The notes under the pieces were generated by a model. The model was not told the origin of the DNA. It made no database searches and saw only the letters and a program-made list of their open reading frames with translations. A stretch of DNA of 38,798 nt from a virus (Duplodnaviria; Heunggongvirae; Uroviricota; Caudoviricetes), in IMG/VR virus record IMGVR_UViG_2703718804_000009; one strand, written 5' to 3'. Positions 2,467-14,454 of this stretch are shown piece after piece. The position numbers and the translations under genes are program-made. Numbering within the stretch: the first letter of the stretch is position 1; each line of letters begins with the position of its first letter.

Positions 2467-2655
2467 TTAAAATCCTGCCGGGATTTCGTTATCCTGGTGA
2501 ATAACTTTATCGACCGGATAACAGTTGCCTGGAATTTTCTGTTCGGTTGCTGCTGCCATACATTCCTGCATTGTTCTGTGAACACTGACTGCAATATCAA
2601 CTGGCTCTCCGGAAACAAGAAAAACCGTCAGAATAAGTGCAAATACTGGATTCAT
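2467..2655 (-). CDS. ydfD: YdfD-like small protein (62 aa) with N-terminal hydrophobic/signal segment
   Basis: Internal Met of track ORF 2467..2709; MNPVFALILTVFLVSG N-terminus; start overlaps the dicB stop (ATGA); AT-rich; position directly after dicB as in the Qin dicB operon (from memory). Confidence 0.55.
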   Translation of the reverse strand: MNPVFALILTVFLVSGEPVDIAVSVHRTMQECMAAATEQKIPGNCYPVDKVIHQDNEIPAGF

Positions 2656-2840
2656 TGTGCACATCCTTTTGGCATCAGACGTAAACGGGCCAGCATTGAA
2701 ACAATGCATACTTTATTTAATAACTCCCGTTCGTGTTTTCTTTTGTTAATGGCCTCTTCAGTGAATACAGGATTACTGATAGTGACACCAATTTCAAAAC
2801 AACCTTCAGACGTATTAACGTTTGGTAATAACGTTTTCAT
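2652..2840 (-). CDS. dicB: DicB cell-division inhibitor (62 aa)
   Basis: Internal Met of track ORF 2652..2945; MKTLLPNVNTSEGCFEIGVTISNPVFTEEAINKRK...LARLRLMPKGCAQ matches recalled DicB; GAGG Shine-Dalgarno 9 nt upstream; lies immediately downstream of DicF. Confidence 0.75.
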   Translation of the reverse strand: MKTLLPNVNTSEGCFEIGVTISNPVFTEEAINKRKHERELLNKVCIVSMLARLRLMPKGCAQ

Positions 2841-3009
2841 TATCGCGCCCTCAACAATGAGTTTTGTGATGCGGTGCCTGGTGCCTCCAGGTGACGTTAA
2901 CCAGTTAACAATTAACGCCGGATACAGAGAATCCACCCATAACACTGTTTTTGGTTTTAACTGTTCCGCGTGCGCTTAGCCGCATTCACCGCATCACAAA
3001 ATTCACTTT

Positions 3010-3067
3010 AAAAATGGCGGCAGAGCAGTCACGGAGTAAAACTGATACCGCCAAACGTCACCAGAAA
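3010..3067 (-). ncRNA. dicF: DicF small RNA (ftsZ-targeting sRNA of the dicB operon)
   Basis: Reverse complement of 3010-3067 reads TTTCTGGTGACGTTTGGCGGTATCAGTTTTACTCCGTGACTGCTCTGCCGCC followed by a U-run, matching the DicF sequence as I recall it; located between the ydfC-like gene and dicB. Confidence 0.75.
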
Positions 3068-3401
3068 ATTGATAACAGAGGGCGTTGCAGCGGGGTTGTC
3101 ACTTAAGCGTATGGTCAACCTGACAACCCGGTGTCCTCAACGGGGAAGGAATAACCCCGCCATACTTACCGCCGCGCCATTTCGCGGAGTGCCACAACCG
3201 GAAGCGCACGGTCGACGAAAATTTAACGACAGGCTATCTATGAACCAGCTACCTCGCCGTGCGCTTTCGCGTTATGGTCTGACTTTTCAGGGAAATATCC
3301 TTTCAGTAAACTGTCAGTGCCGGATGCTCACCCGTGTCCGGCGCACGTACTCCACCTCACCCGTGGAGAACTCCTTAATCACCAACCCTCAGGAGGGTGA
3401 A

Positions 3402-3677
3402 ATGTCGACTGAAAATGATGAAATCATTAACTCCCTGATACGCCAAATTAATAATTTTGATAAAGCATTGCAGCATGCTGCGGCGCGTAGTGATATAACT
3501 CTTTTAGCAATTTCATTTCTTGCATCTGTTATGGATAAAAATGAAGTCGTACGACAGAGTCTTGTTGATTATATCGACTCGCTTCAACCCGGCACTTTCA
3601 ATCATGAGAGCTTCAATCATGAGAAAGAGCATGTTAAGTCTGTAATTAATTCTCTTATTTTGAATCAAAAGAATTAA
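3402..3677 (+). CDS. hypothetical protein (91 aa), rightward gene embedded in the leftward operon
   Basis: ATG at 3402 with strong SD (AGGAGGG) 5-7 nt upstream; AT-rich coding sequence; the upstream in-frame extension in track ORF 3069..3677 is GC-rich, Arg-rich and not protein-like. Confidence 0.45.
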   Translation: MSTENDEIINSLIRQINNFDKALQHAAARSDITLLAISFLASVMDKNEVVRQSLVDYIDSLQPGTFNHESFNHEKEHVKSVINSLILNQKN

Positions 3678-3975
3678 TGCTTTTTGTTGCAAAGTAATTT
3701 TCAAGGGGTTCTATTCGAATCCCTTTCTTTTTCATTAACAAGCCAAACCCCTTATCAATGATGTCCATTAGATCCAGGAAGTATTTTTCATGTAAATCCT
3801 GGTTATCAGAGAGCTGCTTCTCTTCGTACAGACCGATAAAGGCACGACGCACGTTACCGGATATAGTATCGATGGTTTCTTTTTCTACGGTACTCAGGTC
3901 AAGAGTCGCCAGTTGGGAACGAACTATATTCGCTGCCATTTCCTGGAATTGCATTGGTAAATCTTTAAATTCCAT
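3655..3975 (-). CDS. hypothetical protein (106 aa)
   Basis: Track ORF; GAGG SD about 8 nt upstream of the ATG at 3975; 22 bp downstream of the ydfC-like stop; 3' end overlaps the convergent 3402..3677 ORF by 23 bp. Confidence 0.55.
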   Translation of the reverse strand: MEFKDLPMQFQEMAANIVRSQLATLDLSTVEKETIDTISGNVRRAFIGLYEEKQLSDNQDLHEKYFLDLMDIIDKGFGLLMKKKGIRIEPLENYFATKSINSFDSK

Positions 3976-3997
3976 TATTAGCCTCGTTGGTTAGCTA

Positions 3998-4216
3998 TTA
4001 ACGCGGGTATGTAATCATTCTGGCAATGCTTAATGCCGCTGCTTTTTCCAGCCTGGTGATATCCTGCTCCAGAGCGGACAGATTTTCAGCCTGCTTAACC
4101 CTGGCTTCATTAGCCCATTTCAGATCCTGCGCTGCATTAATTTTCTGGCGCATCCACTCATAAAGTTCATCATCGGTATAGTCTGGCGCGATGATGACGG
4201 GTTCTCGTTTCTGCAT
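3998..4216 (-). CDS. YdfC-like small protein (72 aa)
   Basis: Track ORF; size and position match ydfC of the Qin dicB operon (from memory). Confidence 0.55.
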   Translation of the reverse strand: MQKREPVIIAPDYTDDELYEWMRQKINAAQDLKWANEARVKQAENLSALEQDITRLEKAAALSIARMITYPR

Positions 4217-4245
4217 ACTGATTCCTCGCGGTGCTGCTTCGCTTA

Positions 4246-4374
4246 TCAGCCGTTAGATTTTGCCGAGCTGGAAAGCGCCTGTTTAAACTCACTGAAGCTG
4301 AGAGCTTCTTCGCCTTCGGCAAGGCCTTCGAAGTATTCTTCGTAAGCCTTTTCCATGATTGTGTCGAAATCCAT
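4246..4374 (-). CDS. YdfB-like small acidic protein (42 aa)
   Basis: Hand-translated: MDFDTIMEKAYEEYFEGLAEGEEALSFSEFKQALSSSAKSNG; AGGTGA SD upstream; start overlaps the stop of the upstream ydfA-like gene; below the 60-aa cutoff of the ORF track. Confidence 0.5.
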   Translation of the reverse strand: MDFDTIMEKAYEEYFEGLAEGEEALSFSEFKQALSSSAKSNG

Positions 4375-4375
4375 A

Positions 4376-4531
4376 TCACTCACCTGAGTTTCTTTCCAGC
4401 CAGCGACGGGCACCATTTTCGGTTTTAAACGTTTTGCTTTTGGTATACGTCATCGCGGTGAATGTGCCGTCCTGGTTGGGAAACACGCCGTACACCAGAG
4501 ATTCGTTGTTGCCAAGATCGATAGTATCCAT
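4376..4531 (-). CDS. YdfA-like small protein (51 aa); alternative upstream start at 4612 would give 78 aa
   Basis: Internal Met of track ORF 4376..4612 (MDTIDLGNNESLVYGVF...); first gene of the leftward operon downstream of the candidate pL. Confidence 0.5.
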   Translation of the reverse strand: MDTIDLGNNESLVYGVFPNQDGTFTAMTYTKSKTFKTENGARRWLERNSGE

Positions 4532-4713
4532 GCTGACCTCATTTCCCCTTAACGCCGGGGTAGCGGAACAAAAACCTGCTGCATAGTTATTAAAGTTGAA
4601 CCCTGCCGTCATGTTCTTACGCCTCGGGCTGGCTACTTAACCCCTGACCACTGCCTGGTAACTCGAAGTATTGCCCTGCATTCTGTGGGGCGGGTGGGTT
4701 GGTATGCCGTTAA

Positions 4714-4729
4714 GGTAACAAGAGTTACC
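4714..4729. promoter_or_regulatory. candidate OL operator: perfect palindrome GGTAAC-N4-GTTACC, within a candidate pL (-35 TTGACT on the minus strand at 4735-4740)
   Basis: GGTAACAAGAGTTACC read directly; the same half-site arrangement recurs at 5526-5539 on the other side of cI. Confidence 0.45.
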
Positions 4730-4775
4730 TTTCGAGTCAATACGATGTTGCAAAAGGTACATTTGAGAGCGTGAA

Positions 4776-4800
4776 AAACCCGCAATGAATGCGGGTTCTG
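4776..4800 (-). terminator. candidate intrinsic terminator downstream of cI
   Basis: 7-bp GC-rich stem (ACCCGCA/TGCGGGT) with a 5-nt loop, followed on the minus strand by TTTTC; lies immediately 3' of the cI stop. Confidence 0.35.
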
Positions 4801-4802
4801 AC

Positions 4803-5519
4803 TCAGTCTAAGTATTGATGTATTTGTGAAACTTTACCTTTAATGGTGTAACCACCATTCAGTTCGATGGGTTTGTAAAGCGGATTCAGTGACAACAGAT
4901 AGATGTTTGGTCCGTCAATCGCAACTTTTTTTAGTGTTACGTTTGGCGTTCCTTCCAATTGGATTAAGATTATTTTTCCCACCAGTTCTCTAATGTTACT
5001 TGAGCATGGTGTGATCAGCACGGTAGATCCATCGGGGATGGTTGGGAGGCCGTTAGAGTTTGTCATCGCATCTCCCTCAACATGCAATAAAAAAGAGTTT
5101 TCAGCGGTTTTTGTCATGACATCAACCCAATTCTTAATGCCAGGAATCTCGGTTACTGGACAACTCATATCCCAATAACCAGCCTGTTCCCACGTTAAAA
5201 CGGGCAACCGGGCGATGTTGTCACTAATGTAAAGATACTGATTCAGACGCAGATCATCGGTTTTATCGTGACCGTCCTTTCCATAAAGAATCCATTCAGG
5301 AGATTTGGAAAGCAATTTTGACAGTAGATGCAAATTCTCACCGTCAGGTTTTGAAGAGCCATTTTCCCATTTTGTTACGGATACACGAGATATGCCGATT
5401 GCTTTCGCAACCTGCTGTTGGGTTAATCCAACGTCTTTTCGACGATTCCGAATACGTTCGCTGATAGTGTTTTTCATGTAACCAATGTTACTACCAAGTG
5501 ATGTTGCTATGGTTGACAT
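4803..5519 (-). CDS. cI: CI-type prophage repressor (HTH plus LexA/S24-like autocleavage domain)
   Basis: Track ORF 4803..5576; XRE-type HTH (LTQQQVAKAIGISRVSVTKWENG) and a C-terminal S24 peptidase-like region; divergent from the cro-like gene. Start is ambiguous (5519 MSTIATS or 5477 MKNTISER); the mRNA may be leaderless. Confidence 0.8.
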   Translation of the reverse strand: MSTIATSLGSNIGYMKNTISERIRNRRKDVGLTQQQVAKAIGISRVSVTKWENGSSKPDGENLHLLSKLLSKSPEWILYGKDGHDKTDDLRLNQYLYISDNIARLPVLTWEQAGYWDMSCPVTEIPGIKNWVDVMTKTAENSFLLHVEGDAMTNSNGLPTIPDGSTVLITPCSSNIRELVGKIILIQLEGTPNVTLKKVAIDGPNIYLLSLNPLYKPIELNGGYTIKGKVSQIHQYLD

Positions 5520-5541
5520 TGCTATGTAACTATTGTTACCC
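5513..5541 (+). promoter_or_regulatory. candidate pR/OR: consensus -35 TTGACA (5513-5518) followed by operator palindrome GTAAC-N4-GTTAC (5526-5539)
   Basis: Read directly from the sequence; the -10 element is weak or ambiguous; the region sits between divergent cI and cro-like genes. Confidence 0.4.
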
Positions 5542-5568
5542 TCCTGCTCGAAATAACAGGAGAGTTTT

Positions 5569-5784
5569 ATGTTCAAAGATGATGTTCTGCGCTATTTCAA
5601 AAAAAAGCGACTAGTAGCTGAGGCTCTTGGAATTTCACATGTGGCTGTTGTGCGGTGGAAAGCAGTTATTCCCAAACTTCGCGCAATGGAACTGGATGAA
5701 ATTACTAACGGTGAATTGAAATACAACCCAGAACTTTACAAGAAGCAGGATAGCACCTCGAACGAAGGAAAGAATGATTCATGA
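5569..5784 (+). CDS. Cro-like HTH regulator (DicC/YdaS family)
   Basis: Track ORF; 71 aa; divergent from cI; AGGAGAG SD; resembles DicC/YdaS-type Cro proteins (from memory). Confidence 0.65.
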   Translation: MFKDDVLRYFKKKRLVAEALGISHVAVVRWKAVIPKLRAMELDEITNGELKYNPELYKKQDSTSNEGKNDS

Positions 5785-6206
5785 AAATCAAGCATGAACA
5801 CATCCGCATGGCGATGAATGCCTGGGCGCATCCGGACGGCGAAAAAGTACCGGCTGCGAAAATTACCAAAGCGTATTTCGAGCTGGGAATGACGTTCCCG
5901 GAACTGTATGACGACAGCCATCCGGAAGCCCTGGCTCGCAATACCCAGAAAATTTTCCGCTGGGTAGAGAAAGACACCCCTGATGCAGTTGAAAAAATTC
6001 AGGCGTTGTTACCAGCGATCGAAAAGGCAATGCCACCTTTGCTGGTGGCCAGAATGCGCAGCCACAGTTCAGCTTATTTTCGGGAGTTGGTGGAGACGCG
6101 GGAGCGACTGGTGAGAGACGCTGATGATTTTGTCGCAGTGGCAATCGCCGGTTTCAATCAGATGAACCGTGGTGGCCCGGCAGGAAATGCTGTGGCAGTA
6201 CATTGA
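5781..6206 (+). CDS. YdaT-like protein (CII-analogue position)
   Basis: Track ORF; MKIKHEHI N-terminus typical of YdaT as recalled; ATGA overlap with the cro-like stop. Confidence 0.55.
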   Translation: MKIKHEHIRMAMNAWAHPDGEKVPAAKITKAYFELGMTFPELYDDSHPEALARNTQKIFRWVEKDTPDAVEKIQALLPAIEKAMPPLLVARMRSHSSAYFRELVETRERLVRDADDFVAVAIAGFNQMNRGGPAGNAVAVH

Positions 6207-10303: not shown

Positions 10304-10631
10304 AAACAGAAACAACAATTGCCGTTACCTGTTGTTACCATGGCAAGTAAACGTATCTCAGGCGAGCGCATTGCGCCGTTCTGACGCAGATAAATTAGCC
10401 TGGATAGAAGGTGCTGGCAATAAAAAATAGCGTTTTCTTATCGGTGTCGGTAAGATTGCTGCGGGTGCTTGAGGCTGTCTGCCTCAGGCATGCCACTGTA
10501 AGGCAGACAGAGAAAAGCCCCAGTTAACATTACGCGTCCGGCAAGACGCTTAACATTAATCTGAGGCTCAATCTATGAACGGCAAATCTAGGTTAGCCTC
10601 TTACGCGCCGAAAGGCAAGGAGAAGCAGGCT

Positions 10632-10787
10632 ATGAAGCAGCAAAAGGCGATGTTAGTCGCCCTGATCGTCATCTGTATTACCGTCATTGTGACGGCACTG
10701 GTAACGAGGAAAGACCTCTGCGAGGTACGAATCCGAACCGGCCAGACGGAGGTCACTGTCTTCACAGCTTACGAACCTGAGGAGTAA
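10632..10787 (+). CDS. hokD: Hok/Gef-family type I toxin (51 aa), near-identical to HokD/RelF as recalled
   Basis: MKQQKAMLVALIVICITVIVTALVTRKDLCEVRIRTGQTEVTVFTAYEPEE; AAGGAG SD 9 nt upstream; structured leader; an in-frame upstream ATG at 10575 gives the 70-aa track ORF. Confidence 0.85.
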   Translation: MKQQKAMLVALIVICITVIVTALVTRKDLCEVRIRTGQTEVTVFTAYEPEE

Positions 10788-12883: not shown

Positions 12884-13249
12884 ATGACTGAACGCATAGA
12901 ATTTGTTTTGCCTTACCCGCCGACGGTGAATACCTACTGGCGACGTCATGGCAATACGTATTTCATCTCGGAAGCCGGAAAGCGTTATCGCCGTGATGTG
13001 GCGCTAATTGTTCGCCAGCAGCGGTTGAAATTAAACCTGTCCGGAAGGCTGGCGATAAAGATTATTGCAGAGCCACCGGATAAGCGCCGTCGTGACCTGG
13101 ACAATATCCTGAAAGCACCACTGGATGCGCTGACGCATGCCGGACTACTCATAGACGACGAGCAGTTTGATGAAATCAATATTGTGCGCGGTCAGCTCGT
13201 TCCTGGTGGGCGGCTGGGGATAAAAATCACAGAACTGGAGTGCGCATGA
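12884..13249 (+). CDS. rusA: RusA Holliday-junction resolvase
   Basis: 121 aa; MTERIEFVLPYPPTVNTYWRR N-terminus typical of RusA; position before Q. Confidence 0.85.
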   Translation: MTERIEFVLPYPPTVNTYWRRHGNTYFISEAGKRYRRDVALIVRQQRLKLNLSGRLAIKIIAEPPDKRRRDLDNILKAPLDALTHAGLLIDDEQFDEINIVRGQLVPGGRLGIKITELECA

Positions 13250-13935
13250 ATAACCAGTATTTACAGTTTGTGCGTGAGCAGCTCATTATCGCCACCGCTG
13301 ATTTGAGTGGGGCAACAAAAGGTCAGCTTGAAGCCTGGCAGGAGAATGCCATGTTCGATACAGGGCGTTACAGGCGAAAAAAAATCCGGTACCGCGATGA
13401 AGTGACTGGAAAAATGATAACGCGGGATAATCCACCAATCCCGGGAAAACAATCACTGGCGAATGGCTCATCAATTGCCCTGGTCAGCCCGGTTGAGTTT
13501 TCGACATCATCATGGCGGCGGGCTTTGCTGTCTCTTGAAGAGCATCATAAAGCCTGGTTGTTGTGGTGTTACGGCGAGAGTATTTGTTGGGAATATCAGA
13601 TCGCGATAACACAGTGGGCGTGGAATGAATTTAATACTCAATCAGGTACCAGAAAAATTGCAGGGAAAACGCAGGAACGCCTGAAAAAATTAATCTGGCT
13701 GGCGGCGCAGGCAGTAAAAGCAGAACTTTTTGGTGGGGAAGGTTATGAATACCAGGAGCTGGCATTACTGGCGGGAGTGACAACTAAAAACTGGTCCAAA
13801 ACATTTACTCGTCACTGGGTTGCAATGAAACACATTTTTCAACGACTGGATAGTGAGGCTTTATTGTTTGTAATGAGAACACGTTCAAAACAAAAGGCGG
13901 CATTTTCAAAGCAAAGTGTTGCAAAAGTAGATTGA
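13246..13935 (+). CDS. late-gene antiterminator Q-like protein
   Basis: ATGA overlap with the rusA stop; immediately upstream of a candidate late promoter/terminator, the tRNAs and the lysis cassette. Confidence 0.6.
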   Translation: MNNQYLQFVREQLIIATADLSGATKGQLEAWQENAMFDTGRYRRKKIRYRDEVTGKMITRDNPPIPGKQSLANGSSIALVSPVEFSTSSWRRALLSLEEHHKAWLLWCYGESICWEYQIAITQWAWNEFNTQSGTRKIAGKTQERLKKLIWLAAQAVKAELFGGEGYEYQELALLAGVTTKNWSKTFTRHWVAMKHIFQRLDSEALLFVMRTRSKQKAAFSKQSVAKVD

Positions 13936-14143: not shown

Positions 14144-14219
14144 CGGCCCTTTAGCTCAGTGGTGAGAGCGAGCGACTCATAATCGCCAGGTCGCTGGTTC
14201 AAATCCAGCAAGGGCCACC
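14144..14219 (+). tRNA. tRNA with CAT anticodon, most similar to tRNA-Ile2 (lysidine, AUA-decoding; ileX/ileZ-like); tRNA-Met not excluded
   Basis: Hand-folded cloverleaf: 7-bp acceptor stem, GCTC/GAGC D-stem, CTCATAA anticodon loop, perfect T-arm (GCTGG TTCAAAT CCAGC), CCA end. Confidence 0.7.
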
Positions 14220-14220
14220 A

Positions 14221-14297
14221 ACCGCCACTAGCTCATCAGGAAAGAGCGTCAACCCTTTAAGTTGAGTGTGCGAGGTTCGAGTCCCCGGTGGCGGTCC
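14221..14297 (+). tRNA. tRNA-like gene, atypical; predicted anticodon UUU (Lys) with C at position 33 and one T-stem mismatch; possible pseudo-tRNA
   Basis: Hand-folded: 7-bp acceptor stem (CCGCCAC/GTGGCGG), D-stem GCTC/GAGC, anticodon stem TCAAC/GTTGA with loop CCTTTAA, TTCGAGT T-loop, CCA end. Confidence 0.4.
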
Positions 14298-14299
14298 AG

Positions 14300-14375
<76 letters not shown>

Positions 14376-14378
14376 ATA

Positions 14379-14454
<76 letters not shown>

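Follow-up and report, generated by a model that had tools for sequence, protein, structure and literature searches.

Lambda operators are 17-bp sites, and those of P22 consist of two half-sites of the ATTTAAG type arranged around a 4-bp centre. In CP-933P, a gfp fusion showed the leftward promoter PL933P to be active, and PaaR2 or YdaS repressed it approximately 100-fold; its −35 and −10 elements recur unchanged in the PR of the prophage, and the operator consensus is GTTTAGTAA (PMC8630535). In Qin, dicBp is the accepted PL analogue of the dicBF operon (PMC10448788). Here we describe a comparable element in a 38,798-bp stretch of viral DNA (Caudoviricetes; IMG/VR record IMGVR_UViG_2703718804_000009), the whole of which is referred to below as the window. 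We consider it very probable that a palindrome at positions 4712–4731 is OL1, the main high-affinity left operator of a lambdoid Escherichia coli prophage, and that it is embedded in the sigma-70 promoter pL.

Our model predicts that a dimer of the CI-type repressor would bind the two GTAAC half-sites of OL1, as Cro would later, in lytic growth. The operator would fill the spacer of pL, with its last three bases serving as the first three of the −10 element, so that bound repressor would exclude RNA polymerase and the ydfA–ydfB–ydfC–DicF–DicB operon would thereby be silent in the lysogen. OL2, a second site located 32 bp upstream (approximately three helical turns), would probably add cooperative binding, and the predicted right operators OR1 and OR3 carry the same core as OL1. 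We infer binding, repression, cooperativity and a start site near 4705 from the nucleotide sequence and its conservation.

The palindrome and the probable leftward promoter

The region was proposed as a candidate OL/pL in an earlier note, which had read a perfect palindrome, GGTAACAAGAGTTACC, at 4714–4729. This palindrome is present in the sequence, and a repeat finder extended it. The full element is a perfect 8-4-8 repeat at 4712–4731, AAGGTAAC-AAGA-GTTACCTT, longer than the 6-4-6 repeat first claimed; its arms (4712–4719 and 4724–4731) are 100% complementary and are separated by 4 nt. The palindrome contains the 14-bp core GTAAC-N4-GTTAC (4715–4728), which the note had described as recurring at OR. 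A motif search bore this out. Exact matches to the core were found at three positions in the window (4715, 5478 and 5526), all of which flank cI, and the latter two lie in the cI–cro intergenic region. Dinucleotide-preserving shuffles gave an expectation of 0.02 copies, and none of 100 shuffles reached three. As in lambdoid OL/pL regions, the operator sequence is common to OL and OR (one copy on the left and two on the right), and OL1 lies beyond the 3′ end of the CI-type repressor gene and its terminator, facing the leftward operon. A lone GGTAAC half-site further downstream, at 4657–4662 in the leader of the leftward transcript, was not counted as an operator, since phages that carry other repressors have kept it.

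The promoter elements named in the note are also borne out by the sequence. The −35 hexamer of pL, TTGACT, is encoded on the minus strand at 4735–4740 (AGTCAA on the plus strand), and TACCTT (plus-strand positions 4712–4717) begins exactly 17 nt downstream of it on the minus strand, inside the palindrome. The −10 hexamer begins in the last TAC of the operator. By direct reading of the sequence we identified a further feature that had gone unmentioned: a TG at −15/−14 (plus-strand positions 4719–4720), which gives the minus-strand sequence TGT-TACCTT and hence an extended −10 element spanning 4712–4720 (TG at 4720–4719, T, then TACCTT at 4717–4712). Transcription is predicted to start at an A on the minus strand at about 4705 (4703–4706), 7 nt past the −10 element.

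Because a strict consensus scan reported no promoter and was blind to the cI terminator, promoters were scored with a rough weight matrix of our own. Between 4300 and 5900, this matrix ranked pR first and pL second; over both strands of the whole window, the score of pR was reached by one site and that of pL by three. The two promoters follow a common plan. Each has a TTGACw hexamer followed by 6 or 7 nt and then GTAAC-N4-GTTAC, a −10 element (TACCyT) that starts in the last TAC of the core, and a TG at −15/−14.

Conservation, positional homology and rival readings

Relatives of the locus were found by protein search and contig look-ups. By identity of CI they include the E. coli locus L006 (89%), L011 (88%), the Salmonella loci L008 and L009 (70%), L010 (66%), Hamiltonella defensa L014 and the Arsenophonus metagenome-assembled genome (MAG) L015 (both 52%), and L013 of the Yersinia pseudotuberculosis complex (47%). 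We compared 12 loci, the window and 11 others with CI identities of 47–99%, in an ungapped alignment that includes five divergent E. coli copies; apart from E. coli, the set covers Hamiltonella, Arsenophonus, Yersinia and two further contigs. In all loci but those of Salmonella, cI is followed by the putative upstream OL2 site, 5–9 nt, the −35 element, exactly 6 nt and the 14-bp operator, and the last TAC of the operator begins the −10 element. The −35 hexamer reads TTGACw in 10 of the 12 loci and is always exactly 6 nt from the operator, a distance that E. coli, Yersinia, Hamiltonella and Arsenophonus all share. For the −10 element of pL, the sequence is TACCTT in L010 and the E. coli group, TACACT in Yersinia, and TACATT in both Hamiltonella and Arsenophonus.

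Information content across the 12 loci follows this layout. The left and right half-sites carry 1.79 and 1.83 bits per position, the −35 hexamer 1.63 and the three −10 bases past the operator 1.59; the corresponding values are 1.10 for the central 4 bp, 0.70 for the 6-nt spacer and 0.89 for the 16 nt that follow the −10 element, so that spacer, centre and flanks are the variable parts. The CTT beyond the operator is conserved solely on the flank of OL1 and OR1 that faces the promoter, with ACAT on the opposite flank of OR1, and therefore reflects the −10 element rather than a longer operator. Exact core sites in 4–5 kb of each relative number three in L006, three in L011 and four in L010, all of them at OR or OL.

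The same comparison bears on OL2, which is absent from the earlier account. In the window, the candidate is a weak site, GTACC-TTTT-GCAAC on the minus strand (4747–4760), with three mismatches to the core. It lies upstream of the −35 element at a distance of 32 bp from OL1, and taken alone this copy is statistically undistinctive. Its counterpart matches the core perfectly in L010, with one mismatch in Yersinia and with two each in Hamiltonella and Arsenophonus, and always lies 31–35 bp from OL1. OL2 is probably a second, weaker left operator.

We also aligned the minus strand of 4520–4810 with Evi, 666R9 and 640R1, three phages whose repressors differ from that of the window. Near-identity to all three begins at the predicted start, ATACCAACCC, and continues from window position 4705 downward. 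Just upstream of this point, Evi and 640R1 have TTGACy, a spacer of 16–17 nt that holds a palindrome of their own, and TAAACT; a 666R9 promoter was not identified in the alignment. The pL of the window aligns column for column with that of Evi. The Evi palindrome recurs at the Evi OR and matches the repeat consensus of CP-933P (PMC8630535). When the primers used to clone PL933P were placed on Evi, 22 of 22 and 20 of 21 bases matched, and the cloned fragment stops immediately short of the shared leader, at the position equivalent to the predicted start. From the alignment with Evi and the mapping of these primers, the candidate pL therefore sits in the slot of an experimentally active, repressor-controlled PL. 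On this sequence comparison, the immunity-specific part, consisting of the operators, the −35 and the −10, has been swapped as a module.

Location, shared core, twin promoter, conservation and positional homology all support the OL/pL interpretation put forward in the earlier note. Several observations weigh against it. The strict sigma-70 consensus scan of 4300–5900 returned no promoter, missing both pL and pR, because TACCTT and TACCCT match TATAAT at three positions only; with three matches of six, TACCTT is a weak −10 element. The weight matrix was built from remembered consensus frequencies, and its numbers are approximate. The window copies of OL2 and OR2 are both degenerate, and their only support is the conservation of their positions. 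In L017 (E. coli O111:H- strain 110512), the −35 of pL is TTAACC instead of TTGACT, with OL1 intact, so its leftward promoter has possibly been inactivated; because of this damage, some prophage copies may be inactive. In the Salmonella loci L008 and L009, no GTAAC-N4-GTTAC was found to the left of cI within the contigs, and OL may be further away or missing. These two loci have a 204-aa gene of no known family after cI, on the same strand and with its own TTGACA upstream. Finally, with the catalytic serine of the repressor missing, the usual SOS route to derepression may not apply.

The weak −10 element and the empty strict scan would suit a reading in which the palindrome is a genuine repressor/Cro site and the leftward promoter lies elsewhere, for example nearer to ydfA, like dicBp in Qin, with the palindrome acting mainly as a distal looping partner of OR or as a roadblock. 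The K-12 Qin sequence TTGACC-N17-TAATCT, read here as dicBp and lying in a shorter intergenic region at a distance of approximately 100 bp from ydfA, points in the same direction. However, no other minus-strand candidate between the ydfA start (4531) and 4711 was among the 15 best weight-matrix hits, and the −35 element, its constant distance of 6 nt from the operator and the CTT within the −10 element are conserved beyond the operator's own needs. Moreover, similarity to other phages breaks exactly at the predicted +1, and the aligned PL933P fragment is an active promoter (PMC8630535). We regard a promoter elsewhere as improbable. Chance, or a non-functional relic of a decaying prophage, was also considered, since short palindromes turn up often, many of the prophages in E. 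coli are cryptic and L017 has lost its −35 element. Against this stand the three copies where 0.02 were expected, all at the immunity region, a position and a sequence that are kept in several genera and at CI identities as low as 47%, and a window in which the set of replication, Q, head- and tail-sized genes is apparently complete. We consider such an origin very improbable.

The palindrome could instead act as RNA, as a small hairpin or terminator in transcripts that read through cI, and a stem of 8 bp with a 4-nt loop could indeed form. This is unlikely in the extreme, because no U-run follows the palindrome on either strand, a proper terminator with a U-run is already present between cI and the site (4774–4797), and the arms are conserved as the specific sequences GTAAC and GTTAC, without compensatory changes in relatives. 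In addition, the outer bases by which the stem is lengthened in the window do not pair with each other in L006, L010 or L011, and the same sequence occurs at OR in DNA that is untranscribed or divergently transcribed. An operator embedded in pL remains the explanation that we favor for the palindrome.

The repressor, the predicted right operators and the leftward operon

The cI-type repressor gene (4803–5477, minus strand) encodes a protein of 224 aa with matches to HTH_3 (E = 2e-16) and Peptidase_S24 (E = 9e-17). The protein aligns along its length with lambda CI, and its helix-turn-helix (HTH) domain aligns with P22 C2. We took 5477 as the start because the Met at this position is invariant in nine aligned homologues and the 14-codon extension upstream of it is not conserved; the start at 5519 in the RefSeq annotation (238 aa) was rejected on these grounds. 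The recognition helix, SRVSVTKWE, is identical in nine of nine aligned repressors. Downstream of the gene, the repeat finder identified an intrinsic terminator (4774–4797, minus strand) in which a stem, AACCCGCA / TGCGGGTT, with a 5-nt loop is followed by a U-run. The arms of this hairpin (4777–4784 and 4790–4797) are 100% complementary, and an equivalent hairpin and T-run were seen in most relatives.

The cI start codon lacks an upstream Shine-Dalgarno (SD) sequence and abuts OR3, which suggests that cI mRNA is leaderless, as it is in lambda. A TAACAT inside OR3, 7 nt before the cI ATG, would suit a leaderless transcript, and we tentatively place pRM there, although no convincing −35 was found. 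The paaR2 gene of CP-933P also gives rise to a leaderless transcript (PMC8630535).

Ala137 of the repressor (codon GCG, 5067–5069) aligns with the catalytic Ser149 of lambda CI, the local sequences being GDAM and GNSM, respectively. By reading of the alignment, the Ala-Gly site (WEQAGYW) and the Lys (TLKKV) appear to be kept. Thus the Ser-Lys dyad of a LexA/CI-type self-cleaving repressor (Peptidase S24) is incomplete in the window, the nucleophile position being occupied by Ala. SOS-driven self-cleavage is doubtful because of this replacement, and the sequence suggests that the repressor is naturally unable to cleave itself. The immunity region is carried by 702 of 5,426 complete E. coli genomes (approximately 13%), and an exact 32-mer spanning the Ala codon was present in 682 of these 702 carriers. 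Ala is also found in the relatives with 89% and 70% CI identity; most other homologues found have Ser. A scan for LexA boxes gave nothing above chance, and no antirepressor was recognised in a PHROG scan of ten early-right genes.

In a phage collection, the best repressor identity to the CI of the window was no higher than 43.5%, and a search of the same collection for near-identical DNA matched the flanks only, with no sequenced phage there having this repressor. When one genome per species was scanned with the CI protein, the outcome was two HTH hits in Firmicutes/Mollicutes that we set aside as irrelevant. A limited literature search turned up no account of GTAAC-N4-GTTAC as a phage operator, the one motif hit being an unrelated comparative genomics study of nitrogen-oxide regulators, and no papers citing these proteins by RefSeq accession. 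It is conceivable, and we offer it only tentatively, that GTAAC-N4-GTTAC is the operator code of an undescribed yet very common E. coli immunity group, with a repressor family that reaches Yersinia and prophages of Hamiltonella and Arsenophonus, both of which are insect symbionts, and a dominant Ser-less E. coli allele that is not opened by RecA-stimulated self-cleavage. If so, the switch that silences DicB and DicF would need another trigger, which might be an antirepressor, Qin-like bistability driven by Cro, or something else. The missing catalytic serine is the part of this system most likely to reward experiment.

On the right-hand side, three sites precede cro. OR3, GTAACCAATGTTAC (5478–5491), directly abuts the cI ATG, and its position is invariant in 12 of the 12 loci compared. 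OR1, GTAACTATTGTTAC (5526–5539), overlaps the −10 element of pR. Between them, a candidate weak site, GTTGC-TATG-GTTGA (5503–5516), overlaps the −35 element of pR, with OR1 23 bp away on one side and OR3 25 bp away on the other; its position is conserved and its sequence degenerate, and it is probably a weak operator, OR2. The pR promoter itself (5513–5542, plus strand; TTGACA-N18-TACCCT with a TG at −15/−14) was the top sigma-70-like site in the whole window by the rough weight matrix, and its −10 element reads TACCTT in four relatives.

Two genes follow on the plus strand. A profile match assigns cro (5569–5784) to the P22_Cro family, and YdaT, a CII-like protein (5781–6206), is near-identical to PDB 3c4r and matches 8bt1 with E = 1e-81. 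An inverted repeat near cro, ACCCTCCTG / CAGGAGAGT (5538–5546 and 5557–5565; 9-nt arms, 89% complementary), includes the cro SD sequence. With a left arm no further downstream than the predicted pR start, it is probably not contained in the mRNA. At the junction of the cro stop and the ydaT start, ATGATTCATGAAAATCAA (5774–5791) departs at one position from the published YdaT site, TTGATT-N6-AATCAA (PMC9986795). In CP-933P, PRE933P has been described as lying between ydaS and ydaT (PMC8630535). The number of YdaT-type sites in the window is not above chance, and this one has no bearing on OL.

The predicted leftward early operon (2652–4531, minus strand) comprises ydfA/DUF1391, ydfB-like and ydfC-like open reading frames (ORFs), a 106-aa ORF, DicF and DicB. 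The ydfA gene (4376–4531) was identified by a Pfam match, the DicF small RNA (3015–3066) by Rfam at 73.4 bits and full-length DicB (2652–2840) by Pfam at E = 6e-39; all are on the minus strand. The ydfB-like, ydfC-like and 106-aa ORFs lie between ydfA and DicF on that strand, and ydfB and ydfC were named solely via the annotation of relatives. A DUF1482 gene is found at 2470–2709 (minus strand). The gene order of the operon is the same in L006 and in Qin, and the predicted order ydfA–ydfB–ydfC–DicF–DicB, based on Pfam and Rfam, would fit what a Qin-type dicBp drives. With DicF and DicB in its leftward operon, an apparently complete lambdoid prophage therefore carries cell-division inhibitors of the Qin type.

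The leader of the leftward transcript extends on the minus strand from about 4702–4705 to 4532 and is common to phages of other immunity types. It is 95–100% conserved in Evi, 666R9 and 640R1, in spite of their different repressors, and blocks of it are kept in L010 and the Arsenophonus prophage. Its 5′ end is C-rich. We rejected a strongly structured leader RNA because folding was less stable than that of shuffled sequences (z = +1.86). The fold derived from the leader alignment was likewise unconvincing, as its few compensatory pairs came from two divergent sequences only, and Rfam searches at gathering and permissive thresholds returned nothing credible at the palindrome or in the leader. 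A conserved SD sequence and start codon in the leader, GAGG...ATG (ATG at 4612), opens a mini-ORF of 5–27 codons in different phages. A Rho-loading site and a regulatory upstream ORF are possibilities for the function of the leader.

In L015, the Arsenophonus MAG, a boxA-like sequence, CGCTCTTTAAC, and a boxB-like hairpin, TTCGC-TGAAAAA-GCGAA, are found at approximately 3440–3480, downstream of the conserved leader block, and are followed by a gene of the N_peptide Pfam family (3627–3968). From its sequence, this looks like a nutL/N-like arrangement, which the window lacks.

Elsewhere in the window, which holds an apparently complete set of genes, including replication, Q, and head- and tail-sized genes, two further elements were recorded. 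A match to the Rfam family sok (hok/sok antitoxin RNA; 110.7 bits) is located at 10463–10637 on the plus strand, and a cluster of four tRNAs (14145–14451, plus strand) lies just downstream of the gene for the Q-like antiterminator (13240–13935).

Comparison with described switches

The analysis provides a predicted map of operators and promoters (OL1, OL2, OR1 to OR3, pL and pR), concrete enough to be tested, for an immunity type present in about 13% of complete E. coli genomes. Knowledge of the operators helps to predict the timing of host-affecting products and the mutual immunity of prophages, and it helps in the design of reporters. The arrangement is of the textbook lambda type, and our understanding of phage switches is unchanged by it. 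As predicted here, the element would act in the manner of OL/pL in lambda, PL933P in CP-933P and dicBp in Qin, and is an ordinary kind of genetic switch.

As in lambda, the operator overlaps the early leftward promoter just past the repressor gene, its sequence is reused at OR, which also appears tripartite with a spacing of 23–25 bp, and the repressor combines an N-terminal HTH with a LexA-like C-terminal domain. Unlike lambda, the core is a 14-bp site of 5-4-5 geometry and of new sequence, there are two apparent OL sites only, 32 bp apart and straddling the −35 element, a terminator lies between cI and pL, and rexAB is absent. The first genes served by pL are ydfA through DicF and DicB instead of N, and the catalytic Ser of lambda CI is replaced by Ala. 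The closest solved HTH domain is that of P22 C2 (E = 2.6e-12). The locus further resembles P22 in that its cro belongs to the P22_Cro family and its operators have the geometry of half-site, 4-bp centre and half-site, whereas the GTAAC half-site differs in sequence from that of P22. The repressors of P22 and phage 21 have 36% full-length identity to the CI of the window.

With CP-933P, the locus shares the position of the promoter relative to a common transcribed leader, and its right-hand neighbours are a cro of the P22_Cro/YdaS type and YdaT. The pL and pR elements of the window are closely similar only (TTGACT/TACCTT and TTGACA/TACCCT), in contrast to the identical pair of CP-933P. PaaR2 is a different protein and is followed by the paaA2-parE2 toxin-antitoxin genes, and the window has GTAAC-N4-GTTAC in place of the PaaR2/YdaS consensus, the shared part being confined to the leader past +1. 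With Qin, it shares an operon of the same type (ydfA, ydfB, ydfC, DicF and DicB) and a promoter located between the repressor gene and ydfA. However, DicA is a protein of 135 aa without a LexA-like domain, whereas the repressor of the window is a CI/LexA-type protein of 224 aa; the operators differ and the promoter-proximal DNA is unrelated, and the intergenic region of Qin is shorter, with only the last ~45 nt before ydfA in common. Because both repressor and operator sequences differ, the site in the window falls outside the operator sets of PL933P and dicBp.

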